A DNA stretch of 62,703 nt, filler included, from Nemertoderma westbladi (taxonomy: Eukaryota; Animalia; Xenacoelomorpha): assembly GCA_032718475.1 (NCBI GenBank). It is 3 parts of 3 records of this genome, joined end to end, with 100 filler letters (N's around TTAATTAATTAA, not from the genome) between each part and the next. Parts side by side here need not be neighbours in the genome. Positions count along the whole stretch, not along the records: positions 26,193 to 57,555 come from JAUCBJ010000258.1; 2 more parts are not named here. One strand, written 5' to 3'. Below are positions 26,093 through 61,118 of the stretch, in pieces. Position numbers and translations under genes: made by a program. Within the stretch, counting starts at the first letter, position 1; every line of letters starts with the position of its first letter. The notes below the pieces were generated by a model that was not told the DNA's origin, did not search any database, and saw only the letters and a program-made list of their open reading frames with translations.

Positions 26093-26192
26093 NNNNNNNN
26101 NNNNNNNNNNNNNNNNNNNNNNNNNNNNNNNNNNNNTTAATTAATTAANNNNNNNNNNNNNNNNNNNNNNNNNNNNNNNNNNNNNNNNNNNN
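26093..26192. other. Artificial gap/linker (N44-TTAATTAATTAA-N44)
   Basis: 100 bp with a six-frame stop linker in the middle. Confidence 0.97.
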
Positions 26193-27822
26193 TACCCAAG
26201 TCTGTGCTAGTTAGCTGTCTTTTAACAGCTGGGGGCAAATCAGGCAATTTGCGACGGTAATATGTTTTTCTACGCCTACTTAGATGAGATCTATTTCCTC
26301 CGCCTTCAGGATCGGTAGTATCGCCTTCCTCCGAGGATGTGTATCCCTGGCGCTTGGGAGTAGATTTTCTCATCATCTGCATTTGATTAGCAGTAAACTG
26401 TTTATTTATACTGTCTTGTGTCTCTTGCAGATTTTCCAACTCCAGTTGGGTTGTCTGCTCAGAGGCTCTCCGTTCTGCTTCGGCCACTGCCCTTTCCGCC
26501 TTTGCTTCTGCCGCTGCTGCCTTTCTTTTTGCTTCTGCCGCTGCTGCCCTTCCTTTTGCTTCTGCTTCTGCCGCTGCTGCCCTTCTTTCTGCTTCTGCTT
26601 CTGCCGCCGCTGCCTTTCTTTCTGCTTCTGCTTCTGCCGTAGCCGCCGCCTTTTGTTCCTCTATCCTTCTTTTCTTTATTTGTTCTTCTCGGACTCTAGT
26701 GAGGCGGAGTTTTTCTTCACATTCAGCTTGGTTTGCAGCTAACATTTCGGCATCGATTGAGTCCAACACAAGCTTGGTTCCTTCACTATTAGGGGAAAGT
26801 CCAGACAGCCGTCTCCTCAACTCTTCGTCTCCTAGGAATCGCTGATAGTCGGACAAATAAATGTCGATAGCGTCTCTAGTTCGCGGTTCCTCGGCGGCCT
26901 CTTCGCTTTTCGCTTGAGAAAGGGTGACATCAGTTGGTTCTTCATAGGTTGATCTCTCAGCCAGCTGGGATTTCCACTGGGCCGTTTCCTGGACTTTGAG
27001 ATCTACCCGATGTAACCAAGTTTTGACAGCAACCTGCAGCGACGTGTCCTGTCTTCTTTTGGAAGTTTCCTCAAAGGCTGAGAGGATTAGTCGTATGCGT
27101 AGGGTTCTTTCGCGTATTTGATATAGCAGGTCTTCCTGCTCTTGAGGTCCGTGAGGTTGTCGAAACAGTTGTTCTTCCAATCGATCCAAGGATCCGAAGA
27201 ATCCCTGCACATATCCTGCTGCCGACCTCTTCCAAACAGCTGGATCCATTGTATCTTTAGCCACTCCCATCCTGTGTATATCTTCCCAAGTAGCCTCGGA
27301 CAGATCCAACGGAAGTCCGTGTCCGGGAAAGTTCCATTGTGATTCAACAATAGATATCAATTCTTCCCTGGCGTATCCCGCGTAATTATCTTGGGTCGCT
27401 CGCTTATTCTTCGCCCAGTCGGCTTGATGTTCCTCCACCGCAATGAATATAGTAGTTAGCACTGCAGCAGGAAGAGTAAGAAGGGGGTCCGAGTAGACTG
27501 TATCAGCCATCTGCACTCCATGTTCGGGAGTCAGCTCTACAGTATCCGAACTGCTGGAGCTATCGGGCCGCTGGGAAGTAGGTTCTTGACCAAGATGTTG
27601 CTGCGATAGGACAACTGCCTCTTGGTCCCGTTTTACCTGTGCCCGAGTGCCTATGATGGACCTATGGTGGACTAGCCTAGGGTCTGATACTACTGGAGGG
27701 ATGACCTTTTTTACAGTAGGAGGTGAGCCGAACTCCTTTCTTATTCGCTCCACACTCCTATCTGAATCACAGATAGTTGTATCGATCAGACTGTCTGACA
27801 GGTTTTGCTGAGTGTCAGACAT
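26193..27822 (-). CDS. Partial intronless ORF of more than 540 aa with an Ala/Glu-rich coiled coil; possibly the gag/ORF1 of a retroelement
   Basis: Uninterrupted ORF running into the gap; (AAAAEAEAERK)n repeats, then acidic Ser-rich and basic segments. Preceded by about 3 kb of non-coding DNA with internal direct repeats. No zinc knuckle or RT is visible. Confidence 0.6.
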
Positions 27823-27899
27823 GTTTAGCTATACAGTTGAAGGCTTACTGCTATGGTTACAGTTAAAGCAAGTCTAGTAATTCAGTATGACCACTGGCC

Positions 27900-35079: not shown

Positions 35080-36332
35080 AGCCCCGTTCACATCCAACTG
35101 TGCGTGAGCGGTAAAGTAGTCTGGCGGTATTGAAGCGCTAACACTAACACTACCTGGAGCCCGTTCACACCCAACGGTACCGTTGCGGTAACTGATTGTC
35201 TGTCTGTGGACTGTGAATTCAACAGGGAATTACATTAATAGTTTTAACATTGTTTAAATGGGCTGCGGTAAACCGCGCGGTTTAGCGCCCAACTACCTGT
35301 TGGGTCGTTCACTACTACTACTACTACTACTAGGATCGGCATGCTGCATTGCAGCTGCATTTTTAAGAATGCTGTGCCGGCTTGTCAACAAAATTGCACC
35401 GCCACAACTCCCTATCACCCATGACATTTGCTAGATCATCCGCATCTTTAAGGCCAGTGTCCTTTAAGATGCGTCTCAAGAAAGTCATGGGCTGTCCACC
35501 ATGCTTATTCACTCCATGAGGCTGCCATAGTACAAGATTATGCACTGGCTGGTCCTCACGGCGAAAGCAATGTCCTGCAAAGCGGAGGCGATTTTGTTCT
35601 AGTGTCAAGCTTGGGGGAACCAATGAGACACCTCCAATGTTATATAGTGTCTGGTTGGAGATGTGTGCATTGTACTTGACACAATGTACCCGGCGTAGCA
35701 TTCTTGTGAATGTGCCATCCAGAGATTTGGTGTCCTCAGCAGTTAGAGCCCAGCATGGACTCCCGTAGAGGAGTACTGGAACTACTGCTGCTCTAAATAA
35801 TCGGACCTTAAGTTTCCGATTAATTCTAGGTGACTTCCAAATCCTGGAAAGCCTATTCAAGGCTGCCCATGCCTTTCCCTTACGTATTCGAAGGTCCTCA
35901 CCTGACTTCCGGATCCATGATCCCAGGTAACAGAAGTCGTCCACATGCTCAAGCATACCATCCTTTGAGCTTATGCTCATCCGATCAGAGACTTGCTGAG
36001 GACTTTCAAAGTTAACTGTCAGAATTTTGGTCTTTCTGGAGTTAATAAAAAGACCAACACTAGAAGCAGCATGTTCTAATGAGCTGAGGAGCCGCTGGGC
36101 TCCCTCTAATGATTCTGAGAGTACTCCTAAGTCATCAGCAAAGTCTAGATCAGTTAGGTACTTGGCAGGATTTCCTCGACTTCTGGAGCCAGTAGGTGGA
36201 GTTATCATCACCCCATCATCGTGTCGTTCACAGCCAGCGGTGTACCGCTGGCCCTGCGGTACACCGCGCGGTGTACCGCTGGCCCTGCGGTACACCGCGC
36301 GGTGTACCGTTCCGTTGGATGTGAACGGGTCT
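35080..36332. mobile_element. Non-autonomous TIR element (PIF/Harbinger-like MITE, about 330 bp) interrupted by a LINE
   Basis: TIRs AGCCCCGTTCACATCCAAC (35080) and GTTGGATGTGAACGGGTCT (36314-36332, 1 mismatch), flanked by TAA and TTA; internal palindromic gcggtgtaccgc repeats. Confidence 0.7.
35313..36222 (-). mobile_element. Second, more 5'-truncated copy of the same RTE-like LINE
   Basis: Translation nearly identical to the C-terminal part of ORF 21932..23101. (TAG)n tail at 35312-35332; 9-bp TSD GTCGTTCAC at 35304-35312 and 36223-36231. Confidence 0.93.
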
Positions 36333-37666
36333 TTAAGGGGGTTTTGATTGGAATACGTATCACATAAACATAAACAATGACAATGAATTTCAAATTAATA
36401 ATCTGCAATTATTGTTTGTAAGAAAAGTTGCATTTATTGTCCTTTATAAATAAGTTAAAAAGGCAATTTTGTTGAAACTACATGACTTTCATTTCCAGCA
36501 TGGAGCAGCTGTAAGCAATAATATAAATTGATGTTTCATTAATCGAATTGGGAGGGCTTGGGGGTTTATTTCGTAAACTGACTTAGAAGGCGGAATTATT
36601 ACAAAAGGAGAGAAATAATTACAAGTATTGATCGCGAAATGCTATGATACATAGCCACGCATGTCGCTGCCGTGTAACCAATGATATACTGAGCATTTCA
36701 GAAACTAAAACCAGCAGTCATTTAATACACAAAGCATATTGTTTAATAAGATAATATAGGTAATATATGTGATGTGAGAGCGTAACTGGCTCATTACACA
36801 CAAATATACGACACATAGTCGTATAGAAAAGCGTTTGATGGCAGCCTTTAGTATTACAGTTAAACCGTCGTGGGGTTTACTAAACCAAATAATGACCGTA
36901 TGTAATTGCTGAGCTCACAGCTGGGCTGTTTGAATAGTATAATAATAACGGAAGCATAATACGGTAAGTAACGCGTGTATGGGGTTGGGATGTGCCCTCA
37001 ACGGGTCTGATGGTGCGCGGGTAACTATCTAATGACAGCATATGGTTGGGTTTGCGCTCGGCAAAAGATATGCTTTATAGAAGCTTTCTCAGCCTGCTGC
37101 TATGCTGGTGGTGGTTTCGGTTGGCAGCGCAGTTTGGTGCGGCTGTTGGTTTAGGGGGGGTAAAGGAGGTTCTGATTACCACAACACATTGAATCTATTG
37201 GGTACACCGACCAATAAGCGGCCCTGTGATTGTGCTGTTATAGTAACAGGTCTCTCTGCTGAATGCACATTGCTTACTTACTGTCAACTTCTTTCTTTTA
37301 TATTTAAATAAAATAAGGATAATATTTTGAATAAGAAGATTATTATTAATTTTGTTTTAATTCTATTTATTTTATTACCGTTAATTTCTAACATTCAAAT
37401 AAAATTAATAACAAAATTATAAATTAATAATAATGCCATAATAATAAAATAATAATTCGCACTGTGCAGTATACGCAAAGGGAAACAACATTATTTATCT
37501 TTCGCCAAGAAAACTTGACGCCATGCGATTGAATGTTACATTTAATACAAGAAATGTTGTTCAAGGTACACTACACTACACCCACCGACAAGTAACAAAA
37601 ATAAAAAAAGGGTTTTAACGCAGCGAGTTTTCTGCCTCTCCTAGAGGCCTTACTCAGGCTTTAAAC

Positions 37667-38085: not shown

Positions 38086-39245
38086 AACACAAGTAGAGTA
38101 AACACAAGAAACAAGGGATTCCCCCAACACAAGTAGAGTAAACACTAGAAACAAGGGATTCCTGCAACACAAGTAGAGTAAACACAAGAAACAAGGGATT
38201 CCTCCAACACAAGTAGAGTAAACACTAGAAACAAGGGATTCCTGCAACACAAGTAGAGTAAACACAAGAAACAAGGGATTCCCCCAACACAAGTAGAGTA
38301 AACACTAGAAACAAGGGATTCCTGCAACACAAGTAGAGTAAACACAAGAAACAAGGGATTCCCCCAACACAAGTAGAGTAAACACTAGAAACAAGGGATT
38401 CCTGCAACACAAGTAGAGTAAACACTAGAAACAAGGGATTCCTCCAACACAAGTAGAGTAAACACTAGAAACAAGGGATTCCTGCAACACAAGAAGAGTA
38501 AACACAAGAAACAAGGGATTCCTCCAACACAAGTAGAGTAAACACTAGAAACAAGGGATTCCTGCAACACAAGTAGAGTAAACACTAGAAACAAGGGATT
38601 CCTGCAACACAAGTAGAGTAAACACTAGAAACAAGGGATTCCTGCAACACAAGTAGAGTAAACACTAGAAACAAGGGATTCCTGCAACACAAGTAGAGTA
38701 AACACTAGAAACAAGGGATTCCTGCAACACAAGTAGAGTAAACACAAGAAACAAGGGATTCCTCCAACACAAGTAGAGTAAACACTAGAAACAAGGGATT
38801 CCTGCAACACAAGTAGAGTAAACACTAGAAACAAGGGATTCCTGCAACACAAGTAGAGTAAACACTAGAAACAAGGGATTCCTGCAACACAAGTAGAGTA
38901 AACACAAGAAACAAGGGATTCCCCCAACACAAGTAGAGTAAACACTAGAAACAAGGGATTCCTGCAACACAAGTAGAGTAAACACTAGAAACAAGGGATT
39001 CCTGCAACACAAGTAGAGTAAACACTAGAAACAAGGGATTCCTGCAATACAAGTAGAGTAAACACTAGAAACAAGGGATTCCTGCAACACAAGTAGAGTA
39101 AACACTAGAAACAAGGGATTCCTGCAACACAAGTAGAGTAAACACAAGAAACAAGGGATTCCTCCAACACAAGTAGAGTAAAGACTAGAAACAAGGGATT
39201 CCTGCAACACAAGTAGAGTAAACACTAGAAACAAGGGATTCCTGC
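38086..39245. repeat. 40-bp tandem array, about 29 copies (predicted 3' UTR of the 71-aa gene)
   Basis: aacacaagtagagtaaacac(t/a)agaaacaagggattcc(tg/cc/tc)c repeated; lies between the predicted stop (39246) and two minus-strand AATAAA (38043-38059). Confidence 0.95.
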
Positions 39246-42112
39246 TTAGATGTGTTTAGGTGGTTCGTTATCTTCTCTCTTGTGCTCGTAACTACGGACG
39301 AAATATACTTTTAAATAATAAGTGAATTGTTTTAATTTTTAATGAATTTAGATATACTTTTTCGGAAATTTTCGAAATTTTCTTGAAAAACACATTTCAG
39401 AAAATCTCACATCCCTATATATTAGACTTGGAAATTAGAAATTTGAAGCATGTTCCGGTTTATATCAGTATAAAAACATCTGATCCAAAAATGCAAGAAT
39501 TGAAAGTGAAAAAAACATACTTTCATAAGCTACAAAAATATTTACTGTTTTTCAGAAAAAAATCCAAAATAATGGCAGGACGACCTCGGCAACATTAATA
39601 ACTTAGTGGTAATATACTGATAGAATTTTATTAAAAGTTATAATTTTAAGATTAATTGTAACCATTATTATAATAAATAAATATATTGATGTCGTTCAAG
39701 GGTACATTTCAAAATATTCAACGAAACATTAACAACACATAAAAGCAAAATATTCAACGAAACATTAACAACACATAAAAGCAAAATATTCAACGAAACA
39801 TTAACAACACATAAAAGCAAAATATTCAACGAAACATTAACAACACATAAAAGCAAAATATTCAACGAAACATTAACAACACATAAAAGCAAAATATTCA
39901 ACGAAACATTAACAACACATAAAAGCAAAATATTCAACGAAACATTAACAACACATAAAAGCAAAATATTCAACGAAACATTAACAACACATAAAAGCAA
40001 AATATTCAACGAAACATTAACAACACATAAAAGCAAAATATTCAACGAAACATTAACAACACATAAAAGCAAAATATTCAACGAAACATTAACAACACAT
40101 AAAAGCAAAATATTCAACGAAACATTAACAACACATAAAAGCAAAATATTCAACGAAACATTAACAACACATAAAAGCAAAATATTCAACGAAACATTAA
40201 CAACACATAAAAGCAAAATATTTTCATAATGTGCGTACCTTGGAACGTTCCTAGGACAAACACTTAGATGTTTGGAGTGGAACGTTCCTAGAACAAACAC
40301 TTAGATGTTTGGAGTGGAACGTTCCTAGAACAAACACTTAGATGTTTGGAGTGGAACGTTCCTAGTACAAACACTTAGATGTTTGGAGTGGAACGTTCCT
40401 AGTACAAACACTTAGATGTTTGGAGTGGAACGTTCCTAGTACAAACACTTAGATGTTTGGAGTGGAACGTTCCTAGAACAAACACTTCGATGTTTGGAGT
40501 GGAACGTTCCTAGAACAAACACTTAGATGTTTGGAGTGGAACGTTCCTAGTACAAACACTTAGATGTTTGGAGTGGAACGTTCCTAGTACAAACACTTAG
40601 ATGTTTGGAGTGGAACGTTCCTAGTACAAACACTTAGATGTTTGGAGTGGAACGTTCCTAGAACAAACACTTCGATGTTTGGAGTGGAACGTTCCTAGAA
40701 CAAACACTTAGATGTTTGGAGTGGAACGTTCCTAGTACAAACACTTAGATGTTTGGAGTGGAACGTTCCTAGTACAAACACTTAGATGTTTGGAGTGGAA
40801 CGTTCCTAGTACAAACACTTAGATGTTTGGAGTGGAACGTTCCTATAACAAACACTTCGATGTTTGGAGTGGAACGTTCCTAGAACAAACACTTAGATGT
40901 TTGGAGTGGAACGTTCCTAGTACAAACACTTAGATGTTTGGAGTGGAACGTTCCTAGTACAAACACTTCGATGTTTGGATTGGAACGTTCCTAGAACAAA
41001 CACTTAGATGTTTGGAGTGGAACGTTCCTAGTACAAACACTTAGATGTTTGGAGTGGAACGTTCCTAGTACAAACACTTAGATGTTTGGAGTGGAACGTT
41101 CCTAGAACAAACACTTCGATGTTTGGAGTGGAACGTTCCTAGAACAAACACTTAGATGTTTGGAGTGGAACGTTCCTAGTACAAACACTTAGATGTTTGG
41201 AGTGGAACGTTCCTAGTACAAACACTTAGATGTTTGGAGTGGAACGTTCCTAGTACAAACACTTAGATGTTTGGAGTGGAACGTTCCTAGAACAAACACT
41301 TCGATGTTTGGAGTGGAACGTTCCTAGAACAAACACTTAGATGTTTGGAGTGGAACGTTCCTAGTACAAACACTTAGATGTTTGGAGTGGAACGTTCCTA
41401 GTACAAACACTTCGATGTTTGGAGTGGAACGTTCCTAGAACAAACACTTAGATGTTTGGAGTGGAACGTTCCTAGTACAAACACTTAGATGTTTGGAGTG
41501 GAACGTTCCTAGAACAAACACTTAGATGTTTGGAGTGGAACGTTCCTAGCTAATTACGTTTATGACCCTTGTACAGTATAGCTATGTAAACCTCCATCGC
41601 TTCACTTGCTCTGTAAATAAATACACAGCGTCGTATCGCTGAAAAGTTCTACCCTTTACACATTTATGTAAATAGTAATTTTTTGTTGTACATATAAATA
41701 TTATTTTATTATAATATCTTGTTGCCTACATAATTTATAAGCCCAATATGTAGGTGGTGTATAAAATACCTATATTTTTGGGGTGAGTAAAAATCAAAAT
41801 GAGTGAGTACCAGTTAAATTACTGGGAGCAAATCTTGGGATAGGAGTAGCGCCCACCCCTACCCTCGGGTAGCAGCTATCGAAAGAGGAGCCTTCGGGTC
41901 GCCTCCGGCTTCGGCCGACTGTTTGCTTGCTTTGAAAAAACCCAAGACCCAATTAAGTAAGCTGCATAATCTTGTAAACATTTGTTAACTTTCGTTTATT
42001 GTTTTGATTCCCCCAACACGCCTCTGTAACCTGCTCCTTAACTAACGATCTATCTATCACCCTCAATGAATATATTAACTACAGTAGTATTACAATATCC
42101 AACCCCCCCCCC

Positions 42113-43438: not shown

Positions 43439-43712
43439 TCTCAATATAACTAAAAAAAGTAAAAATTTTGCGGTGAGGAACAGCAGACAGCAGGTGAGGT
43501 CACAATAGCAGAACGATCTTTGACGGCCTCATGGTAAAAGTAAACGTGGTCGACAACCATTTATTCCAACAGAAACAAACATGAATTTTATGTATTTAAA
43601 TAAATAATTATTATATTAGAGAGTATTCTGTATAGTAGGCATTAATAGGAAAATAATAATGGACTTACTGTAGGCTGTAAATCTGAAAGTTATTGAAAAT
43701 CCTTCTAATTAG

Positions 43713-44919
43713 TTATTTGTTTCTAGTAATTAACTCGCTGACAGTTAACATGCGGTAACCTTCCCATTGAGCCTGCTCTATCAACTGTGTCTGCAGTTCT
43801 TCATCCGTCATGTAGGATGTTACTTGGGTACGTAGCTTCTCCATGACAACCAAGTTAGTGCAGCTGATGAAGAACTTTTTGGATATGAGTATGCACTCGC
43901 AACCTTTAGATACTAGACTCACACCTTGTATCGGTTGTTCTGAATATACTGCCGCATATAAACCGAACACATCTTTAGCTTGGAGAAGTTGTATTTCCAC
44001 CCATCTATCTTGTAACTCCCGCCCATCTGTTCCGTTTATTAACTTTCCTGTCCCACTGATCAATGACGAGCGTTTACCTATCGTATCAAACCAACGTTCT
44101 GATAGCCAATCGGATTTCATTTGTAAGAATTTCTCATGGGACGAAGCCTGATTGGTCAGCTGACTGCGTTGATTCCAGTTATTAACTCTCTTGTTATATG
44201 TCGCTTTCATTCTAGAATATTCATCAGTAGATGACGCATTATCTTGTGGATTTCTAGTGATTGGAAATCTATTTCACAAAATATCCTTTATTTCACCAGC
44301 TAATCGAATATTTTGATTTAATTTATATATTTTTTAGGTTGGTAATTTTAGACCAGTAATTTAAATACATTTTTCTTCCTCCATTCTGTGATGGTTGATA
44401 CATTGCATTATCATTCTCATGTATAACACATAACTTTAAATTTAGTAATTAAGTATTTTGAATTTTTATTAACATCATAAATAAACAACATTATTTTTCC
44501 AAGAAAAGGTTATTTTGTGAACTGATTTCGCAACTTTTTATTGCTATATATATTTTTCCAATTATTATTTACCCAGAAACCGCCATCGAATTGTCTGAAA
44601 CTCGGTTTTGTGAGTCGGATCTTCCGGTAGGCGACGCAGCTTCCAAGGCGAACGATATAAATATAATCGGCTTTACGAACGTCGGCACAGATAACCGTTC
44701 CATTCCGGAAGTACGTGTACAGACAAACATTTGGGTCGCGCCAGGGTAGTTGGTCTATTGGCCAGCCACGTAACGCCTCCACCGTGCGAAGAAAGGTAAT
44801 GAATTCCGGTTCCTGTCCCTCCAGATACGGCGGCATGAATATCTCGATGAAGTCTTCTCGCGGAAGGCACAGCAGTTCTAGTTCGTTATGGGAAACTACA
44901 GTGGCAGATCGGACACCAC
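43713..44919 (-). CDS. 3' part of a cyclic-nucleotide-binding-domain protein (CNBD2-like); exons 44919-44573, 44385-44369 (17 nt), 44268-43713
   Basis: GVRSATVVS..ELLCLPREDF is the end of a cNMP phosphate-binding cassette and hinge. A second degenerate CNB region follows (NGTVIC..YIYIVRLGSC ... DVFG..VSLVSKGCECILISKKFF). GT-AG phases 0 and 2 reconcile through a 17-nt exon. 5' exons are absent (array and gap). Confidence 0.75.
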
Positions 44920-47900
44920 CTAAAAATAACAAAACTACAGTGGCAGATCGGACACCACCTAAAAATAACAAAACTACAGTGGCAGATCGGACACCACATA
45001 AAAATAACAAAGCTACAGTGGCAGATCGGGCACCACCTAAAAATAACAAAACTACAGTGGCAGATTGGACACCACCTAAAAATAACAAAACTACAGTGGC
45101 AGATCGGACACCACCTAAAAATAACAAAACTACAGTGGCAGATCGGAGACCACATAAAAATAACAAAGCTACAGTGGCAGATCGGGCACCACATAAAAAT
45201 AACAAAACTACAGTGGCAGATCGGACACCACCTAAAAATAACAAAACTACAGTGGCAGATCGGACGCCACCTAAAAATAACAAAACTACAGTGGCAGATC
45301 GGACACCACCTAAAAATAACAAAACTACAGTGGCAGATCGGACACCACCTAAAAATAACAAAACTACAGTGGCAGATCGGACACCATCTAAAAATAACAA
45401 AACTACAGTGGCAGATCGGACACCACATAAAAATAACAAAGCTACAGTGGCAGATCGGGCACCACATAAAAATAACAAAACTACAGTGGCAGATCGGACA
45501 CCACCTAAAAATAACAAAACTACAGTGGCAGATTGGACACCACCTAAAAATAACAAAACTACAGTGGCAGATCGGACACCACCTAAAAATAACAAAACTA
45601 CAGTGGCAGATTGGACACCACCTAAAAATAACAAAACTACAGTGGCAGATCGGACACCACCTAAAAATAACAAAACTACAGTGGCAGATCCTAAAAATAA
45701 CAAAACTATAGTGGCAGATTGCACACCACCTAAAAATAACAAAACTACAGTGGCCGATCAGGCACCACATAAAAATAACAAAACTACAGTGGCAGATCGG
45801 ACACCACATAAAAATAACAAAACTACAGTGGCAGATCGGACACCACCTAAAAATAACAAAAACTACAGTGGCAGATCGGGCACCACATAAAGATAACAAA
45901 ACTACAGTGGCAGATCGGACACCACCTAAAAATAACAAAACTACAGTGGCAGATCAGACGCCACTTAAAAATAAAAACTACAGTGGCAGATCGGACACCA
46001 CCTAAAAATAACAAAACTACAGTGGCAGATCAGACGCCACTTAAAAATAAAAACTACAGTGGCAGATCGGACACCACCTAAAAATAACAAAACTACAGTG
46101 GCAGATCGGACACCACCTAAAAATAACAAAAATACAGTGGCAGATCGGACACCACCTAAAAATAACAAAACTACAGTGGCAGATCGGACACCACCTAAAA
46201 ATAACAAAACTACAGTGGCAGATCGGACACCACATAAAAATAACAAAACTACAGTAGCAGATCGGACACCACCTAAAAATAACAAAACTACAGTGGCAGA
46301 TCAGACGCCACTTAAAAATAAAAACTACAGTGGCAGATCGGACACCACCTAAAAATAACAAAACTACAGTGGCAGATCGGACACCACCTAAAAATAACAA
46401 AAATACAGTGGCAGATCGGACACCACCTAAAAATAACAAAACTACAGTGGCAGATCGGACACCACCTAAAAATAACAAAACTACAGTGGCAGATCGGACA
46501 CCACCTAAAAATAACAAAACTACAGTGGCAGATTGGACACCACCTAAAAATAACAAAACTACAGTGGCAGATTGGACACCACCTAAAAATAACAAAACTA
46601 CAGTGGCAGATCGGACACCACCTAAAAATAACACAACTACAGTGGCAGATCGGACACCACCTAAAAATAACAAAAATACAGTGGCAGATCGGACACCACC
46701 TAAAAATAACAAAACTACAGTGGCAGATCGGACACCACCTAAAAATAACAAAACTACAGTGGCAGATTGGACACCACCTAAAAATAACAAAAATACAGTG
46801 GCAGATCGGACACCACCTAAAAATAACAAAACTACAGTGGCAGATCGGACACCACCTAAAAATAACAAAACTACAGTGGCAGATCGGACACCACCTAAAA
46901 ATAACAAAACTACAGTGGCAGATTGGACACCACCTAAAAATAACAAAACTACAGTGGCAGATCGAGCACCACATAAATATAAGAAAACTACAGTGGCAGA
47001 TCGGACACTACCTAAATATAACAAAACTACGGTGGCAGATCGGACACCACCTAAAAATAACAAAACTACGGAGGCAGATCGGACGCCACCTAAAAATAAC
47101 AAAACCACAGTGGCAGATCGGACACCACATAAAAATAACAAAGCTACAGTGGCAGATCGGACAATACCTAAAAATAACAAAACTACGGTGTCAGATCGGA
47201 CGCCACCTAAAAATAACAAAACTACAGTGGCAGATTGGACACCACCTAAAAATAACAAAAATACAGTGGCAGATCGGACACCACCTAAAAATAACAAAAC
47301 TACAGTGGCAGATCGGACACCACCTAAAAATAACAAAACTACAGTGGCAGATCGGGCACCACATAAAGATAACAAAACTACAGTGGCAGATCGGACACCA
47401 CCTAAAAATAACAAAACTACAGTGGCAGATCGGACGCAACCTAAAAATAACAAAAATACAGTGGCAGATCGGACACCACCTAAAAATAACAAAACTACAG
47501 TGGCAGATCGGACACCACCTAAAAATAATAAAACTACAGTGTCAGATCGGACACCACCTAAAAATTACCAAACTACAGTGTCAGATCGGACACCACCTAA
47601 AAATAACAAAACTACAGTGGCAGATCGGACGCCACCTAAAGATAAAAAACTACAGTGGCAGATCGGACACCACCTAAAAATAACAAAACTACAGTGGCAG
47701 ATCGGACACCACCTAAAAATAACAAAACTACAGTGGCAGATTGGACACCACCTAAAAATAACAAAAATACAGTGGCAGATCGGACACCACCTAAAAATAA
47801 CAAAACTACAGTGGCAGATCGGACACCACCTAAAAATAACAAAACTACAGTGGCAGATCGGACACCACCTAAAAATAACAAAACTACAGTGGCAGATTGG

Positions 47901-50900
47901 ACACCACCTAAAAATAACAAAACTACAGTGGCAGATCGGGCACCACATAAATATAAGAAAACTACAGTGGCAGATCGGACACTACCTAAATATAACAAAA
48001 CTACGGTGGCAGATCGGACACCACCTAAAAATAACAAAACTACGGTGGCAGATCGGACGCCACCTAAAAATAACAAAACTACAGTGGCAGATCGGACACC
48101 ACATAAAAATAACAAAGCTACAGTGGCAGATCGGACAATACCTAAAAATAACAAAACTACGGTGGCAGATCGGACGCCACCTAAAAATAACAAAACTACA
48201 GTGGCAGATTGGACACCACCTAAAAATAACAAAAATACAGTGGCAGATCGGACACCACCTAAAAATAACAAAACTACAGTGGCAGATCGGACACCACCTA
48301 AAAATAACAAAACTACAGTGGTAGATCGGACACCACCTAAAAATAACAAAACTACAGTGGCAGATCGGACGCCACCTAAAAATAACAAAAATACAGTGGC
48401 AGATCGGACACCACCTAAAAATAACAAAACTACAGTGGCAGATCGGACACCACCTAAAAATAATAAAACTACAGTGTCAGATCGGACACCACCTAAAAAT
48501 TACCAAACTACAGTGTCAGATCGGACACCACCTAAAAATAACAAAACTACAGTGGCAGATCGGACACCACCTAAAGATAAAAAACTACAGTGGCAGATCG
48601 GACACCACCTAAAAATAACAAAACTATAGTGGCAGATTGGACACCACCTAAAAATAACCAAACTACAGTGTCAGATCGGACACCATCCAGAAATAACAAA
48701 ACTACAGTGGCAGATCGGACACCACCTAAAAATAACAAAACTACAGTGGCAGATTGGACACCACCTAAATATAACAAAACTACAGTGTCAGATCGGACAC
48801 CATCCAGAAATAACAAAACTACAGCGGCAGATCGGACACCACCTAAAAATAACAAAACTACAGTGGCAGATTGGACACCACCTAAATATAACAAAACTAC
48901 GGTGGCAGATCGGACACTACCTAAAAATAACAAAACTACAGTGGCAGATCGGACGCCACCTAAAAATAACAAAACTACAGTGGCAGATTGGACACCACCT
49001 AAAAATAACAAAACTACAGTGGCAGATTGGACACCACCTAAATATAACAAAACTACAGTGGCAGATCGGACACTACCTAAAAATAACAAAACTACAGTGG
49101 CAGATCGGACGCCACCTAAAAATAACAAAAATACAGTGGCAGATCGGACACCACCTAAAAATAACAAAACTACAGTGGCAGATCGGACACCACCTAAAAA
49201 TAATAAAACTACAGTGTCAGATCGGACACCACCTAAAAATTACCAAACTACAGTGTCAGATCGGACACCACCTAAAAATAACAAAACTACAGTGGCAGAT
49301 CGGACGCCACCTAAAGATAAAAAACTACAGTGGCAGATCGGACACCACCTAAAAATAACAAAACTATAGTGGCAGATTGGACACCACCTAAAAATAACCA
49401 AACTACAGTGTCAGATCGGACACCATCCAGAAATAACAAAACTACAGTGGCAGATCGGACACCACCTAAAAATAACAAAACTACAGTGGCAGATCGGACG
49501 CCACCTAAAAATAAAAAACTACAGTGGCAGATCGGACACCACCTAAAAATAACAAAACTACAGTGGCAGATCGGGCGCCACCTTAAGATAAAAAACTGCA
49601 GTGGCAGATCGGACACCACCTAAAAATAACAAAACTATAGTGGCAGATTGGACACCACCTAAAAATAACAAACCTATAGTGGCAGATCGGACACCACCTA
49701 AAAATAACAAAACTACAGTGGCAGATCGGACACCACCTAAAAATAACAAAACTACAGTGGCAGATCGGGCACCACATAAAGATAACAAAACTACAGTGGC
49801 AGATCGGACACCACCTAAAAATAACAAAACTACAGTGGCAGATCGGACACCACCTAAAAATAACAAAACTACAGTGGCATATCGGACACCACCTAAAAAT
49901 AACAAAACTACAGTGGCAGATTGGACACCACCTAAAAATAACAAAACTACAGTGGCAGATTGGACACCACCTAAAAATAACAAAACTACAGTGGCAGATC
50001 GGACACCACCTAAAAATAACAAAACTACAGTGGCAGATCGGACACCACCTAAAAATAACAAAAATACAGTGGCAGATTGGACACCACCTAAAAATAACAA
50101 AACTACAGTGGCAGATCGGACACCACCTAAAAATAACAAAACTACAGTGGCAGATTGGACACCACCTAAAAATAACAAAAATACAGTGGCAGATCGGACA
50201 CCACCTAAAAATAACAAAACTACAATGGCAGATCGGACACCACCTAAAAATAACAAAACTACAGTGGCAGATCGGACACCACCTAAAAATAACAAAACTA
50301 CAGTGGCAGATTGGACACCACCTAAAAATAACAAAACTACAGTGGCAGATCGGGCACCACATAAATATAAGAAAACTACAGTGGCAGATCGGACACTACC
50401 TAAATATAACAAAACTACGGTGGCAGATCGGACACCACCTAAAAATAACAAAACTACGGTGGCAGATCGGACGCCACCTAAAAATAACAAAACTACAGTG
50501 GCAGATCGGACACCACATAAAAATAACAAAGCTACAGTGGCAGATCGGACAATACCTAAAAATAACAAAACTACGGTGGCCGATCGGACGCCACCTAAAA
50601 ATAACAAAACTACAGTGGCAGATTGGACACCACCTAAAAATAACAAAAATACAGTGGCAGATCGGACACCACCTAAAAATAACAAAACTACAGTGGCAGA
50701 TCGGACACCACCTAAAAATAACAAAACTACAGTGGCAGATCGGGCACCACATAAAGATAACAAAACTACAGTGGCAGATCGGACACCACCTAAAAATAAC
50801 AAAACTACAGTGGCAGATCGGACGCCACCTAAAAATAACAAAAATACAGTGGCAGATCGGACACCACCTAAAAATAACAAAACTACAGTGGCAGATCGGA

Positions 50901-53900
50901 CACCACCTAAAAATAATAAAACTACAGTGTCAGATCGGACACCACCTATAAATTACCAAACTACAGTGTCAGATCGGACACCACCTAAAAATAACAAAAC
51001 TACAGTGGCAGATCGGACGCCACCTAAAGATAAAAAACTACAGTGGCAGATCGGACACCACCTAAAAATAACAAAACTATAGTGGCAGATTGGACACCAC
51101 CTAAAAATAACCAAACTACAGTGTCAGATCGGACACCATCCAGAAATAACAAAACTACAGTGGAAGATCGGACACCACCTAAAAATAACAAAACTACAGT
51201 GGCAGATTGGACACCACCTAAATATAACAAAACTACAGTGTCAGATCGGACACCATCCAGAAATAACAAAACTACAGTGGCAGATCGGACACCACCTAAA
51301 AATAACAAAACTACAGTGGCAGATTGGACACCACGTAAATATAACAAAACTACGGTGGCAGATCGGACACTACCTAAAAATAACAAAACTACAGTGGCAG
51401 ATCGGACGCCACCTAAAAATAACAAAACTACAGTGGCAGATTGGACACCACCTAAAAATAACAAAACTACAGTGGCAGATTGGACACCACCTAAATATAA
51501 CAAAACTACGGTGGCAGATCGGACACTACCTAAAAATAACAAAACTACAGTGGCAGATCGGACGCCACCTAAAAATAACAAAAATACAGTGGCAGATCGG
51601 ACACCACCTAAAAATAACAAAACTACAGTGGCAGATCGGACACCACCTAAAAATAATAAAACTACAGTGTCAGATCAGACACCACCTAAAAATTACCAAA
51701 CTACAGTGTCAGATCGGACACCACCTAAAAATAACAAAACTACAGTGGCAGATCGGACGCCACCTAAAGATAAAAAACTACAGTGGCAGATCGGACACCA
51801 CCTAAAAATAACAAAACTATAGTGGCAGATTGGACACCACCTAAAAATAACCAAACTACAGTGTCAGATCGGACACCATCCAGAAATAACAAAACTACAG
51901 TGGCAGATCGGACACCACCTAAAAATAACAAAACTACAGTGGCAGATCGGACGCCACCTAAAAATAAAAAACTACAGTGGCAGATCGGACTCCACCTAAA
52001 AATAACAAAACTACAGTGGCAGATCGGACACCACCTTAAGATAAAAAACTACAGTGGCAGATCGGACACCACCTAAAAATAACAAAACTATAGTGGCAGA
52101 TTGGACACCACCTAAAAATAACAAACCTACAGTGGCAGATCGGACACCACCTAAAAATAACAAAACTACGGTGGCAGATCGGACGCCACCTAAAAATAAC
52201 AAAACTACAGTGGCAGATTGGACACCACCTAAAAATAACAAAAATACAGTGGCAGATCGGACACCACCTAAAAATAACAAAGCTACAGTGGCAGATCGGA
52301 CACCACCTAAAAATAACAAAACTATAGTGGCAGATTGGACACCACCTAAAAATAACCAAACTACAGTGTCAGATCGGACACCATCCAGAAATAACAAAAC
52401 TACAGTGGCAGATCGGACACCACCTAAAAATAACAAAACTACAGTGGCAGATCGGACGCCACCTAAAAATAAAAAACTACAGTGGCAGATCGGACTCCAC
52501 CTAAAAATAACAAAACTACAGTGGCAGATCGGACGCCACCTTAAGATAAAAAACTACAGTGGCAGATCGGACACCACCTAAAAATAACAAAACTATAGTG
52601 GCAGATTGGACACCACCTAAAAATAACAAACCTACAGTGGCAGATCGGACACCACCTAAAAATAACAAAACTACGGTGGCAGATCGGACGCCACCTAAAA
52701 ATAACAAAACTACAGTGGCAGATTGGACACCACCTAAAAATAACAAAAATACAGTGGCAGATCGGACACCACCTAAAAATAACAAAACTACAGTGGCAGA
52801 TCGGACACCACCTAAAAATAACAAAACTACAGTGGCAGATCGGGCACCACATAAAGATAACAAAACTACAGTGGCAGATCGGACACCACCTAAAAATAAC
52901 AAAACTACAGTGGCAGATCGGACGCCACCTAAAAATAACAAAAATACAGTGGCAGATCGGACACCACCTAAAAATAACAAAACTACAATGGCAGATCGGA
53001 CACCACCTAAAAATAACAAAACTACAGTGGCAGATCGGACACCACCTAAAAATAACAAAACTACAGTGGCAGATTGGACACCACCTAAAAATAACAAAAC
53101 TACAGTGGCAGATCGGGCACCACATAAATATAAGAAAACTACAGTGGCAGATCGGACACTACCTAAATATAACAAAACTACGGTGGCAGATCGGACACCA
53201 CCTAAAAATAACAAAACTACGGTGGCAGATCGGACGCCACCTAAAAATAACAAAACTACAGTGGCAGATCGGACACCACATAAAAATAACAAAGCTACAG
53301 TGGCAGATCGGACAATACCTAAAAATAACAAAACTACGGTGGCCGATCGGACGCCACCTAAAAATAACAAAACTACAGTGGCAGATTGGACACCACCTAA
53401 AAATAACAAAAATACAGTGGCAGATCGGACACCACCTAAAAATAACAAAACTACAGTGGCAGATCGGACACCACCTAAAAATAACAAAACTACAGTGGCA
53501 GATCGGGCACCACATAAAGATAACAAAACTACAGTGGCAGATCGGACACCACCTAAAAATAACAAAACTACAGTGGCAGATCGGACGCCACCTAAAAATA
53601 ACAAAAATACAGTGGCAGATCGGACACCACCTAAAAATAACAAAACTACAGTGGCAGATCGGACACCACCTAAAAATAATAAAACTACAGTGTCAGATCG
53701 GACACCACCTATAAATTACCAAACTACAGTGTCAGATCGGACACCACCTAAAAATAACAAAACTACAGTGGCAGATCGGACGCCACCTAAAGATAAAAAA
53801 CTACAGTGGCAGATCGGACACCACCTAAAAATAACAAAACTATAGTGGCAGATTGGACACCACCTAAAAATAACCAAACTACAGTGTCAGATCGGACACC

Positions 53901-56900
53901 ATCCAGAAATAACAAAACTACAGTGGAAGATCGGACACCACCTAAAAATAACAAAACTACAGTGGCAGATTGGACACCACCTAAATATAACAAAACTACA
54001 GTGTCAGATCGGACACCATCCAGAAATAACAAAACTACAGTGGCAGATCGGACACCACCTAAAAATAACAAAACTACAGTGGCAGATTGGACACCACGTA
54101 AATATAACAAAACTACGGTGGCAGATCGGACACTACCTAAAAATAACAAAACTACAGTGGCAGATCGGACGCCACCTAAAAATAACAAAACTACAGTGGC
54201 AGATTGGACACCACCTAAAAATAACAAAACTACAGTGGCAGATTGGACACCACCTAAATATAACAAAACTACGGTGGCAGATCGGACACTACCTAAAAAT
54301 AACAAAACTACAGTGGCAGATCGGACGCCACCTAAAAATAACAAAAATACAGTGGCAGATCGGACACCACCTAAAAATAACAAAACTACAGTGGCAGATC
54401 GGACACCACCTAAAAATAATAAAACTACAGTGTCAGATCAGACACCACCTAAAAATTACCAAACTACAGTGTCAGATCGGACACCACCTAAAAATAACAA
54501 AACTACAGTGGCAGATCGGACGCCACCTAAAGATAAAAAACTACAGTGGCAGATCGGACACCACCTAAAAATAACAAAACTATAGTGGCAGATTGGACAC
54601 CACCTAAAAATAACCAAACTACAGTGTCAGATCGGACACCATCCAGAAATAACAAAACTACAGTGGCAGATCGGACACCACCTAAAAATAACAAAACTAC
54701 AGTGGCAGATCGGACGCCACCTAAAAATAAAAAACTACAGTGGCAGATCGGACTCCACCTAAAAATAACAAAACTACAGTGGCAGATCGGACACCACCTT
54801 AAGATAAAAAACTACAGTGGCAGATCGGACACCACCTAAAAATAACAAAACTATAGTGGCAGATTGGACACCACCTAAAAATAACAAACCTACAGTGGCA
54901 GATCGGACACCACCTAAAAATAACAAAACTACGGTGGCAGATCGGACGCCACCTAAAAATAACAAAACTACAGTGGCAGATTGGACACCACCTAAAAATA
55001 ACAAAAATACAGTGGCAGATCGGACACCACCTAAAAATAACAAAGCTACAGTGGCAGATCGGACACCACCTAAAAATAACAAAACTATAGTGGCAGATTG
55101 GACACCACCTAAAAATAACCAAACTACAGTGTCAGATCGGACACCATCCAGAAATAACAAAACTACAGTGGCAGATCGGACACCACCTAAAAATAACAAA
55201 ACTACAGTGGCAGATCGGACGCCACCTAAAAATAAAAAACTACAGTGGCAGATCGGACTCCACCTAAAAATAACAAAACTACAGTGGCAGATCGGACGCC
55301 ACCTTAAGATAAAAAACTACAGTGGCAGATCGGACACCACCTAAAAATAACAAAACTATAGTGGCAGATTGGACACCACCTAAAAATAACAAACCTACAG
55401 TGGCAGATCGGACACCACCTAAAAATAACAAAACTACGGTGGCAGATCGGACGCCACCTAAAAATAACAAAACTACAGTGGCAGATTGGACACCACCTAA
55501 AAATAACAAAAATACAGTGGCAGATCGGACACCACCTAAAAATAACAAAACTACAGTGGCAGATCGGACACCACCTAAAAATAACAAAACTACAGTGGCA
55601 GATCGGGCACCACATAAAGATAACAAAACTACAGTGGCAGATCGGACACCACCTAAAAATAACAAAACTACAGTGGCAGATCGGACGCCACCTAAAAATA
55701 ACAAAAATACAGTGGCAGATCGGACACCACCTAAAAATAACAAAACTACAGTGGCAGATCGGACACCACCTAAAAATAATAAAACTACAGTGTCAGATCG
55801 GACACCACCTAAAAATTACCAAACTACAGTGTCAGATCGGACACCACCTAAAAATAACAGAACTACAGTGGCAGATTGGACGCCACCTAAAGATAAAAAA
55901 CTACAGTGGCAGATCGGACACCACCTAAAAATAACAAAACTATAGTGGCAGATTGGACACCACCTAAAAATAACCAAACTACAGTGTCAGATCGGACACC
56001 ATCCAGAAATAACAAAACTACAGTGGCAGATCGGACACCACCTAAAAATAACAAAACTACAGTGGCAGATTGGACACCACCTAAATATAACAAAACTACA
56101 GTGTCAGATCGGACACCATCCAGAAATAACAAAACTACAGTGGCAGATCGGACACCACCTAAAAATAACAAAACTACAGTGGCAGATTGGACACCACGTA
56201 AATATAACAAAACTACGGTGGCAGATCGGACACTACCTAAAAATAACAAAACTACAGTGGCAGATCGGACGCCACCTAAAAATAACAAAACTACAGTGGC
56301 AGATTGGACACCACCTAAAAATAACAAAACTACAGTGGCTGATTGGACACCACCTAAATATAACAAAACTACGGTGGCAGATCGGACACTACCTAAAAAT
56401 AACAAAACTACAGTGGCAGATCGGACGCCACCTAAAAATAACAAAAATACAGTGGCAGATCGGACACCACCTAAAAATAACAAAACTACAGTGGCAGATC
56501 GGACACCACCTAAAAATAATAAAACTACAGTGTCAGATCAGACACCACCTAAAAATTACCAAACTACAGTGTCAGATCGGACACCACCTAAAAATAACAA
56601 AACTACAGTGGCAGATCGGACGCCACCTAAAGATAAAAAACTACAGTGGCAGATCGGACACCACCTAAAAATAACAAAACTATAGTGGCAGATTGGACAC
56701 CACCTAAAAATAACCAAACTACAGTGTCAGATCGGACACCATCCAGAAATAACAAAACTACAGTGGCAGATCGGACACCACCTAAAAATAACAAAACTAC
56801 AGTGGCAGATCGGATGCCACCTAAATATAAAAAACTACAGTGGCAGATCGGACACCACCTAAAAATAACAAAACTACAGTGGCAGATCGGACGCCACCTT

Positions 56901-57555
56901 AAGATAAAAAACTACAGTGGCAGATCGGACACCACCTAAAAATAACAAAACTATAGTGGCAGATTGGACACCACCTAAAAATAACAAACCTACAGTGGCA
57001 GATCGGACACCACCTAAAAATAACAAAACTACGGTGGCAGATCGGACGCCACCTAAAAATAACAAAACTACAGTGGCAGATTGGACACCACCTAAAAATA
57101 ACAAAAATACAGTGGCAGATCGGACACCACCTAAAAATAACAAAACTATAGTGGCAGATTGGACACCACCTAAAAATAACCAAACTACAGTGTCAGATCG
57201 GACACCATCCAGAAATAACAAAACTACAGTGGCAGATCGGACACCACCTAAAAATAACAAAACTACAGTGGCAGATCGGACGCCACCTAAATATAACAAA
57301 ACTACAGTGGCAGATCGGACACCACCAGAAATAACAAAACTACAGTGGCAGATCGGACACCACCTAAAAATAACAAAACTACAGTGGCAGATCGGACACC
57401 ACCTAAAAATAACAAAACTACAGTGGCAGATCGGACACCACCTAAAAATAACAAAACTACAGTGGCAGATCGGACGCCACCTAAAAATAACAAAACTACA
57501 GTGGCAGATCGGACACCACCTAAAAATAACAAAACTACAGTGGCAGATTGGACAC
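44893..57555. repeat. 39-bp tandem array, at least 12.66 kb (about 325 copies), truncated by the gap, with higher-order repeats
   Basis: Unit aaactacagtggcagatcggacaccacctaaaaataaca; on the minus strand tgttatttttag|gtggtgtccgatctgccactgtagttt, i.e. the CNBD acceptor plus 27 exon nt. Confidence 0.98.
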
Positions 57556-57655
57556 NNNNNNNNNNNNNNNNNNNNNNNNNNNNNNNNNNNNNNNNNNNNT
57601 TAATTAATTAANNNNNNNNNNNNNNNNNNNNNNNNNNNNNNNNNNNNNNNNNNNN
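57556..57655. other. Artificial gap/linker (N44-TTAATTAATTAA-N44)
   Basis: Same 100-bp six-frame stop linker as at 26093. Confidence 0.97.
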
Positions 57656-59820
57656 GGTTAGACGAGAACTTATTAGGTTGGCAGAAGGATATTAACGGGT
57701 ATTGGTCTGTTCAACAGTTCTGCTGTTAGTATAGAGGTCGCGGTTGTTTATCAGAGGTTGCCATTCATTGTAAAGAATTTGGTCTTTTTCTCATTGATTT
57801 CCATCCCGTAAGTAGTACAAAAAAGTACTAAGGCATTTAATTTCTTCAGCGCATTAACCTTATTTGATGCAAAAATTATAGTATCGTCCATTAGTAAAAG
57901 AATATGTATTCCCCCTAAAAACCCATCTTCCCTTACAGCTGATCGCACCATATGTACTAGTTTATCAATATAGATCAAAATAATATAACGCACGAGGGTG
58001 CCCCCTGGCGGACACCTACCTTAGTTAGGAACAATGCAGATTTCAAAATATGTTTCGTACGATTATATACTGCCTGTATTGCTAATAACATAACTTTACC
58101 ACAACCACATGATTTTAATGTTTGTAGCAAAAGATCCCGTGGTACCCGATCGTACGCTTTTTTGAAATCTACGAATATTATATACAACCTTAGTTTCTTG
58201 TGTAAAGCATAGTCTATCAGTAAACGAAGCGCAACAATATGTTCCCTGCATCCCCTGTTAGGTAAACCCCTGGCCTGACATTTATCTAGGTTACACCATC
58301 TTAGCAGTCTCTTTGCTAATAATAAATCGTACACTTTCGCTACAGTTGACATGATGGATATTCCTCTATAATTGCCACATACAACACGGCTACCCGATTT
58401 AAATATCACAAGTAATTTACTTATACCCCAATTAACCGGATACCACGTGCTATATAATACAATATTAAATACCGATAGGAAGAATAGTAACCAGACAGCC
58501 CCACGTAACTCTTCCCTGTCTTCATATCTGCCATCGCTTCTGCGAGTTCCCGCTCGGTAAAGGGATCATCGAGGGTAGGAATGTAGGGGGAGGCATCGCA
58601 ATCAATTGGACTCGCTACACTTGTGGAATCACCTCCCAACAACTGTGTGAAATGGTCTATGAACTGGGTATCACTCGGTGTATCATCGCCTATGGAAGTA
58701 TTTTCCACTTTACCTCTCCAATTTATCGCCTTCCATATTGTCTTAGGATTGTTTTCCATTGTTAGTCGTTTCCATCTACATAATCTATTTTTAGAAGTAT
58801 CCCAATTTTGATTCTATCCCCGCTTATTATTCTTGGCACAAGTGTTAATTAATATACTGCAGTCGTCAATGCAATGACACAATTCTTCTTTCGATAGAAT
58901 CGACGGATCCGGCGGGTGTATATGTGACATTGCAACGGAGAATGCCTGGCAATCGGTAGTCGTATGTGACACTCCTTTACGCATCGAGAGGTCGCCTCCG
59001 GCGACCTCTCGGGCCAACCGGGTACTCCTAGTGCACCTGAACGTTCAACCAAAGACTCCCCCGAATAACTCAACTGTAGATCCACCAATATATTAACTTT
59101 GAGAGGCGCATGATCAGAAAAACCTAGAGATTGGTCGACGGACACCAAACTAACCAAGTCAACAACATCCCACGAGAATATCGCATGGTCGATCTCAGAG
59201 ATCCACTCCCTTCCTTTGTGGTAACTCACCCACCGAATTGTTTCCCATCATATTTAAAATGGTTGAGTACCACGGTATTTGTAGCCGAGCAAATATTAGT
59301 TAATCGATGACCCCTTGTATTAGTTACATTGTCAACTATTCCATTGTATATTTCAGTTCCTGATCGTGGTTCGGTTTGGCATTCTCTATAAATAACAGGA
59401 TATCCAACTCTTGCGTTTATATCTCCCATTACCGCTACCATTGGTTCATCTTTTAGTTTCGAATGGAATATACCAACCAGCTCCTCCGAAAAATATGGTG
59501 AGTCAGGTGGCGGTATGTAGCAACCACCAAACAGTATTCTAGGTATCAACGATAACCGGAACCATATCTGTCCTTCGCTTGAAGCATCAACAGAGTAAAT
59601 ATATTTCTGTAAATCTTAACATAAGTAATATAATCCCTCCTCTGTGGTTCGCTGTTGCATAGTTTGGATACGTAACAAAACCTGGTACCTTAATAATTGC
59701 ACTAGTTTTTACCTCACTAATAAAAATGACATCATGTTGTAATAAAAATGTTAATACTCTCGGTTCAGTAAGTTTGTCACGGACGCCACAAATGTTCCAC
59801 GAACATATAACCTAATTTCC
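57656..59820 (-). mobile_element. Decayed LINE ORF2 (APE endonuclease plus RT), multiple frameshifts, 3' end lost in the gap
   Basis: SWNICG..IFISEVK (about 59710-59805), YIPP, GDINAR, IDH and SDH APE motifs; NYRGISI, FVDFKKAYD, GVRQG and LMDD RT motifs spread over several short ORFs. Confidence 0.9.
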
Positions 59821-59909
59821 GAGTTTTTAGTTCATCGACATCATGTACCTGCAAAACAGGATTTCAGTGTATAAATTCAAAAATATAGGCAAGCTGCCAG
59901 TAGAATAAC

Positions 59910-60569
59910 CTGTTAGAAGACATTGCTTGGCTCCATGTTGTAAACGGTGTTTGTTTAACATTTACGATCCCGTTATCTTCGATCCGGGCAGTGACCATTG
60001 GGAAGCCAGATTGGTAAAGCCACTGACGGAGGAAGGTGTCTCCATCCGGAAGGTTTTTAGACGAGTCTAAGATCTCCAGCGTTCGAACTCCATCGCGAAA
60101 TATCTCAATAAATTCATCAGTTGATATAGTTGAAAAGATAAATTTCTTTATAACTTTCTAAAAAAAGATACAATCAATAAAATACATGATGAAATGAACG
60201 ATAAAATGACAACCCATAATTATTATTTAAAGCAAACAAGTAGCACTCAACATCTAGCAGAATTTAAATAATTTATACGAATCATCCTTAAGTCCTGTTG
60301 ACTTTATGATAGTAACAATAATGTGTTGGCAAGTTATGTTTTCGAGGCAATTGATGTGTTTCGGCCATTAATATTTATTTTATTAACCTGTAAAACATGT
60401 TTCATTAGTCCTTCTCCGTATATGCTGTCGACCATTTCTAAAATGAATGTAGGTTTGGTGTAAACGAGAAACACTTCCCCAAACACATCCATAACTTCGT
60501 CTTTTGGAGGTACAATGTTGAGAACAGATGCACCTTGCGTCAGAGAATCCGCGTATAGTGTGTTTTGCA
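59910..60569 (-). CDS. Two internal exons (60569-60388, 60157-59910) of an M1-family aminopeptidase (APN/ERAP-like)
   Basis: LYADSL...EVMDVF..VYTKPTFILEMVDSIYGE..MKHVLQ|KVIKKFIF...FLRQWLYQSGFPMVTA..VNVKQTPF matches the Y-x-K-G and W-x-x-Q-x-G-F-P regions of M1 peptidases. GT-AG intron in phase 0. Confidence 0.8.
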
Positions 60570-61118
60570 CTACAAAATATATAAATTAAATCATCAGAAT
60601 AGATTTATTTAATATTATAATTCTAATAGATTATTATGATTATAATATATTATTTATTCAGAAAGCCTGTGCACAGTTATGAGTAACCATGAGAATATGG
60701 GAATATTTCCACGAACGAGCGTAAGGAGTGAGTCAAATATGAAACAAGTGTCTGAAATTGAAATACAGGTACTTTATTTAAATCGAATATGTTCCGGTAG
60801 TTTCGAAGTGTCATTAATTAAAAATTACATAATTAGGAGCTTCTCTTTAATTAGGAGGTCTACAATAAGGTTACTCACTCTGCTATGTTAGGGGGTGGAT
60901 CAGGAGAATGAATTTTAGTTACACAAAGCAGTGTGTCATGTTGTTACTCACTGTGGATTGCAAAATCTTTTATAGTTGACCTATAATAGTTGTATGTATT
61001 TAAGGAGCCCGCTGGCCTACCGCCTAACTTAGCAGGAGTACCTATGTTATATATTCACATAGGATTCACTGGGAAAAGATTTCCGTTTGACGCGGGGTAA
61101 TACCTATAGAAAGAATAA

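Follow-up and report, generated by a model that had tools for sequence, protein, structure and literature searches.

A 39-bp satellite that fills at least 12.7 kb of the Nemertoderma westbladi genome (assembly GCA_032718475.1) runs without interruption into a coding exon of a CNBD2-like gene, in a 62,703-nt stretch of joined sequence (the window). The explanation that we favor, and that the sequence makes probable, is that each 39-base unit spans the end of an intron and the start of that exon, and that the array is a passive satellite lying inside the intron, from which splicing is predicted to proceed to the last copy. The array would then likely be an unusually large example of the known type called a 'mirage', and not a new system.

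TRF placed the array at 44893-57555 on the minus strand, with a period of 39 and 325.6 copies, exactly where a previous sequence-only reading had described it. Wrap-around segmentation gave 326 segments made of 62 distinct strings, with a mean identity to the consensus of 96%. The same reading had counted about 325 tandem AG|GT junctions, which overstates the number still intact: among the 325 junctions scored by segmentation, AG was present at the end in 279 and AG|GT in 278. AG had been lost from 8 of the 25 junctions nearest the exon, compared with 2-5 per 25 elsewhere, although units are not independent of each other. A higher-order repeat of 71 units (2763 bp) covers 50162-55750 (no strand assigned), where 50162-52987 and 52925-55750 are identical over 2826 bp; together with the high identity among units, this amounts to the concerted evolution that characterizes mirages. 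On the exon side the terminal copy equals the consensus exactly, and no stop is encountered on passing into the exon at 44919-44573, confirming that the last copy is seamless with a CNBD exon. Like a mirage, then, the array repeats a segment of the local gene head to tail, and its terminal copy is joined directly to the exon. Three short stretches taken from the unit were absent from the rest of the window. Six further tandem arrays in the window exceed 200 bp, and three of these, within 7 kb, have units of 36-40 bp.

At its far end the array breaks off at a 100-nt spacer (57556-57655, no strand), in which a six-frame stop linker is flanked by 44 N on either side. An identical spacer lies at 26093-26192, and both are likely joins between contigs. 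Hence 12.7 kb is a minimum length, and the sequence beyond need not be adjacent in the genome. This bears on the 'upstream FGE exon' that had been assigned to the CNBD gene, which we took to be 60385-60570 (minus strand), the only FGE-bearing exon seen past the spacer. It matched Peptidase_M1 at a Pfam E of 0.066 and obtained an Atlas score of 0.96, with Peptidase_M1 in 26 of 30 matches, while the CNBD2-like HMM described below did not match it. We therefore consider it an exon of a probable M1 aminopeptidase outside the CNBD2-like gene, so that an RT-PCR starting there would fail. PDB searches with the two exons past the spacer returned chance matches only.

Contigs from other sequencing runs speak to the existence and the size of the array. 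The junction between exon and repeat was found in DNA contigs of a second sample (X2 and X3, two runs of one sample) and the repeat was present in a third (run X5), the three samples coming from three studies. An assembly artefact as the origin of the array is thereby ruled out as far as its existence goes. In run X1, a possible source of the assembly, contigs of the consensus unit had depths of 3800-5229, against 6.3 for the contig of the flanking exon. These depths would correspond to 600-830 identical copies, against 70-132 in the assembly, and scaling gives some 2000-2800 units in total, or half that if the flank represents one haplotype; contig depth is no copy number, and such counts are rough. 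The ratio of repeat to single-copy depth was 77 in X2 and 21 in X3, which puts library bias at 3.6-fold at least, since both runs come from one sample. The array is thus probably several-fold longer than assembled, or else has copies elsewhere, and its length may vary between individuals. Its exact assembled length and the perfect 2.8-kb duplicate may be assembly artefacts. Neither the far end of the array nor an array-free allele appeared among the listed, filtered contig matches to 43500-44935 and 44700-44990.

The exon adjoining the array (44573-44919, minus strand, 347 nt), recognized through Pfam, homologues and an HMM, encodes the end of a first cNMP-binding domain, including R-S-A-T, and the start of a second, and is followed by a putative donor, GTAAAT, at 44572. 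Its product matched Pfam cNMP_binding with an E of 8e-6 and 26.1 bits, just missing the cut-off of 27.5, and it had 312 protein matches at E<=0.001 (best 7e-37). Names were looked up for 10 of these: four have cluster members named CNBD2-like (oyster, abalone, acorn worm) and three others were named only as cNMP-binding-domain proteins (mussel, flatworms). The arginine of R-x-A-T, described beforehand as the conserved residue of the phosphate-binding cassette, is indeed kept in 115 of 120 aligned homologues, a set that includes five cluster mates. The last coding exon (43716-44268, minus strand) is stop-free and ends at the stop codon, with an uncertain 5' border; it was recovered by the HMM at E 8e-30 and by tblastn with 91 of 104 homologues.

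This CNBD2-like HMM (70 full-length homologues, 608 positions) was searched, with the --max option, against 2230 six-frame pieces of the window. Its positions 294-402 fell on exon 44919-44573 and positions 457-592 on 44207-43720, and beyond these two exons it hit only one chance piece of 19 aa, so the 5' half of the gene, FGE motif included, is absent from the window. Judged by its sequence, with two cNMP-binding domains and the C-terminus of the family, the host gene is CNBD2-like, a label that applies to a gene whose N-terminal half lies outside the window and does not mean orthology to vertebrate CNBD2. No close orthologue emerged from word-based searches of proteins (0/46 and 1/2 candidates). 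A beta-tubulin search gave no more than 79-83% identity to many animals and by itself singled out no phylum. Between the two exons, the most convincing donor is in phase 0 but the most convincing acceptor in phase 2, and joining the exons across a poorly conserved linker would require weaker sites or a speculative 17-nt micro-exon, for which 44369-44385 (minus strand) is a candidate.

The key assumption of the sequence-only reading, less certain than it was stated there, concerns the 12 nt with which the unit begins. In the last copy these T-rich bases lie at 44920-44931 (minus strand), and their final AG (44921-44920) would be the working splice acceptor. The sequence-only reading had divided the unit into 12 nt of intron end and 27 nt of exon, and base composition favors this division. 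T-rich 12-mers ending in AG occur at none of 3267 coding positions of the window, GC content is 51% in the remainder of the exon, and TTC accounts for 35 of 42 Phe codons. Translated in the frame of the exon, the unit gives L-L-F-L-G-G-V-R-S-A-T-V-V, where homologues have E-L-A-L-M-H-G-A-K-R at the matching place, and the residues that it would put at -7 and -4 before the Arg are seen in 0 of 120 homologues. The likelihood ratio of intron end over coding sequence ranged from 196 to 520,000 across 18 parameter sets, a rough figure in which the base frequencies of acceptors are assumed. Even when placement inside the exon is given prior odds of 200-300 to 1, we regard it as highly probable on these grounds that the 12 nt are an intron end.

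Homologues, in turn, do not place an intron here. The FG[ED] motif is intact in 115 of 150 of them. Another 12 break immediately before its E/D, five of these with the Gln expected from read-through of a CAG acceptor, which locates the family intron 19 nt upstream of the window's AG. The remainder are 13 short ORFs unbroken from 8 residues or fewer before the Arg, 8 that start downstream, and 2 unclassified; not one of the 150 breaks at the window's AG. An orthologous intron at tag|gtggtg is thus not seen in distant homologues, and an intron end at this point requires an intron peculiar to this lineage, 19 nt downstream of the position usual in the family.

These observations would fit a rival explanation, in which all 39 nt were coding and a new intron was born inside the exon by tandem duplication, as in the model of Rogers. 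The duplication would provide AG|GT twice, with the GT of the first copy serving as donor and the AG of the last as acceptor, and the frame would be restored whatever the size of the array. In its fuller form, a 13-codon piece of the cassette would have grown to between hundreds and more than 2000 copies (tens of kb) and would be spliced out exactly, where no homologue has an intron. The unit does consist of 13 codons, stop-free in the frame of the exon, of which the Leu at -6 (70/120) and the Gly at -3 (27/120) match homologues, and the tblastn alignment reaches 9 nt past the AG. There are also an estimated 200-300 times more possible placements inside the exon than at one acceptor offset, enough to offset the likelihood ratio at its low end, and the mechanism has been shown experimentally (Hellsten 2011, as cited in the available text of PMC3443670 and PMC4974935). 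But with each of the 18 parameter sets composition points to an intron end, Leu and Phe are what T-rich intron ends encode in any case, and the donor would be a weak GTGGTG. Moreover, two downstream family introns, after YFR (12 ORFs) and after KS (5 ORFs), are missing from this gene, so its intron set has been remodeled and a private intron is plausible. Overall, we consider the birth of a new intron from coding sequence unlikely, although it keeps alive one of the three ways of dealing with decoy acceptors suggested by the sequence-only reading, the use of the array as an intron, in a sharper form in which the 12 nt would be coding.

Among those three options, the skipping of decoys by a passive mirage is the best supported. 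A single local duplication would have copied 12 nt of intron end with 27 nt of exon, unequal crossover or slippage would have amplified the unit, and whole blocks of 71 units would have been copied later. The donor at 44572 would pair with the last AG, 347 nt away, and the rest would be treated as one giant intron. Exon definition limits the distance between an acceptor and the downstream donor. No more than the last few AGs fall within this range of the donor at 44572, so the spliceosome would be expected to choose the last one. The next AGs might be used now and then, adding 13-residue blocks in frame and inserting them into the phosphate-binding cassette: from 16 of the 279 AGs (the last one and 15 others) an open frame continues in register into the exon, and from the remaining 263 the frame is shifted or a stop is met. 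Against this reading, each consensus unit has another AG 15 nt before the one at the junction. As for the internal AG|GT, its AG is kept in 46 of 59 unit types and lost in 13, its G belongs to the more variable positions, and there is no sign of selection on it. The weak link of the mirage lies in the branch point, for which the motif is YTRAY. Perfect matches occur in 38 variant units, but the last 21 units have none, so the true acceptor would need a weak branch point.

Two further alternatives make the array either an active participant in splicing or a cause of its failure. The remaining option of the sequence-only reading was recursive removal, in which the first AG, with the original branch point, would be spliced first, a donor would be regenerated at GTGGTG, and the array would be removed in at least one further step. 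The consensus for a donor is GTRAGT. The hexamers following AG|GT match 0-2 of its 4 variable positions, GTRAG is found nowhere in the whole array, and neither the strong regenerated donor nor the site conservation expected of a ratchet point was observed, as judged by a general and not species-specific consensus. The AG|GT of the array shows no extra conservation, with AG no better kept than other positions. The 278 junctions do offer the necessary juxtaposition of AG and GT, two donors of the window (GTTTTT, GTTAAT) are likewise far from consensus, and human UBC uses tandem dual-use AGGT sites, according to the available part of PMC10809524. But recursive sites in the fly are strong and conserved, delimit segments nearly all longer than 1 kb, and show no AGGT-to-AGGT junctions in the portion of PMC6110457 at hand. 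Recursive removal is thus left unsupported, and we judge it very improbable. Alternatively, the array might have crippled the gene, with splicing scattered over many AGs or transcription failing, in which case the intact exons would mean that the damage is recent. The array would leave the original branch point stranded at its far end, no perfect branch motif is present in the last 21 units, as noted above, and the array is young (96% identity, perfect 2.8-kb duplicate). Loss of Cnbd2 in the mouse is incompletely penetrant, as far as the available text of PMC7054227 goes, so selection may be weak. These points must be set against the state of the gene itself. Both CNBD2-like exons are stop-free, with neither stop nor frameshift across ~900 nt, and a second allele, seen in run X3 as one 118-nt contig at a depth of 5.4, differs from the exon at four positions, all four of them synonymous third positions. 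Synonymous changes make up 83 of 354 possible changes (23%), giving p ~0.003 for 4/4. This pattern is a hint that the gene is alive and constrained, with the caveat that the differences may predate the array. The presence of the repeat in three samples from three studies also argues against a crippled gene, which we find improbable. The earlier suggestion that the downstream exons are intact and the gene perhaps expressed is therefore favored by open frames and synonymous differences, and weakened by best-looking splice sites that are out of phase.

As a mirage, the array stands out by its extreme size, far beyond the published cases of 2-7 copies with which we compared it, as described in the available parts of those papers. 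Its units carry distinguishing variants, so that it would be well suited as a natural experiment on the choice of a 3' splice site from hundreds of nearly identical candidates, a counterpart to the donor case of F7. If instead the 12 T-rich bases were coding, it would be a rare natural birth of an intron by exonic duplication with the source sequence still intact, and, should a new intron indeed have formed, it would combine intron gain of the Rogers type with intron gigantism in one event. A literature search, with most subscription papers outside its reach, retrieved no published case of an acceptor-side array of hundreds of copies.

The closest relatives are the mirages of amphioxus, which are amplified intron-exon boundaries in Adh3, the globins BflGb6 and BflGb9, troponin C and PGBD5; in the accessible text of PMC3087553 and PMC3902484, RT-PCR found splicing undisturbed by them, and they were proposed as a route to new introns. 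Like the array described here as we read it, they are tandem copies of an intron end and an exon start, many of which keep AG, and they evolve in concert. Unit size is 39 bp here and 10-160 bp in amphioxus, whereas copies number at least 325, and perhaps 2000 or more in one sample, compared with 2-7 in the amphioxus globin and PGBD5 cases. The 71-unit higher-order repeat and the junction at a non-ancestral position also set our array apart from what those texts describe, and its splicing is a prediction. In the 37-bp VNTR of intron 7 of human F7 (PMC1557585, consulted text), the end unit likewise spans the real splice site and the identical pseudo-sites are silent, yet that repeat lies on the donor side, has few copies, and its mechanism was tested with minigenes. 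From what is available of the two sources, the AGGT model of Rogers (PMC3443670) and the RdRp gene of potato (PMC4974935) share with the array a duplicated segment that holds AG|GT, and the potato duplication crosses an intron-exon boundary, as the unit here probably does. It comprises two copies, with a strong cryptic donor and a new intron confirmed by RNA, in contrast to hundreds of copies and a weak donor here. Human UBC also carries tandem AGGT sites at in-frame intervals, a layout that could be spliced stochastically; its units are whole functional domains, as far as the accessible part of PMC10809524 reports, while a retained unit here would interrupt the phosphate-binding cassette. Finally, recursive sites of Drosophila resemble the array in having juxtaposed AG|GT within a long intron, but, in the excerpts of PMC6110457 and PMC8605326, they are single, strong, conserved and kilobases apart, whereas the sites of the array have weak donors, lack conservation and are spaced at 39 nt.

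In X3, a DNA sequencing run with contigs matching the exon/repeat junction, a 63-nt contig of depth 6.1 aligned to 44922-44974, carried a 13-nt loose end and was similar to a gapped, diverged version of the 39-bp unit. This contig could represent a decayed far end of the 39-bp array, another locus, or a chance similarity.

Three other minisatellites all lie less than 7 kb from the end of the CNBD2-like gene: 29 copies of a 40-bp unit (38086-39245), 14 copies of a 36-bp unit (39710-40222) and 35 copies of a 37-bp unit (40241-41549). Read on the minus strand, the 40-bp unit includes a YAG that resembles a splice acceptor; no exon was seen at the end of this array.

Elsewhere in the window, LINE-like reverse-transcriptase regions at 21571-23098 (plus strand) and 35366-36394 (minus strand) are near-identical copies, one on each side of the first spacer. 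Separate from these, inspection of translations by eye showed a decayed LINE-like element at 57754-59811 (minus strand), in which pieces of an endonuclease and of a reverse transcriptase can be recognised. The first spacer is itself flanked by long minus-strand ORFs of 257 codons (25321-26091) and 545 codons (26194-27828). The latter has Ala/Glu-rich, coiled-coil-like repeats and gave no Pfam match; the two ORFs possibly belong to a Gag-like gene of a mobile element. Pfam matches were likewise absent for an intron-free 364-codon ORF (14587-15678, plus strand) and for the second exon of a pair that probably encodes part of an M1 aminopeptidase (59867-60585, minus strand).

A divergent beta-tubulin gene occupies 18252-20074 (plus strand). 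Its product shows at most 83% identity to any database tubulin and bears a long acidic tail, and its introns fall after codons ~33 and ~114, positions unlike those of vertebrate genes.
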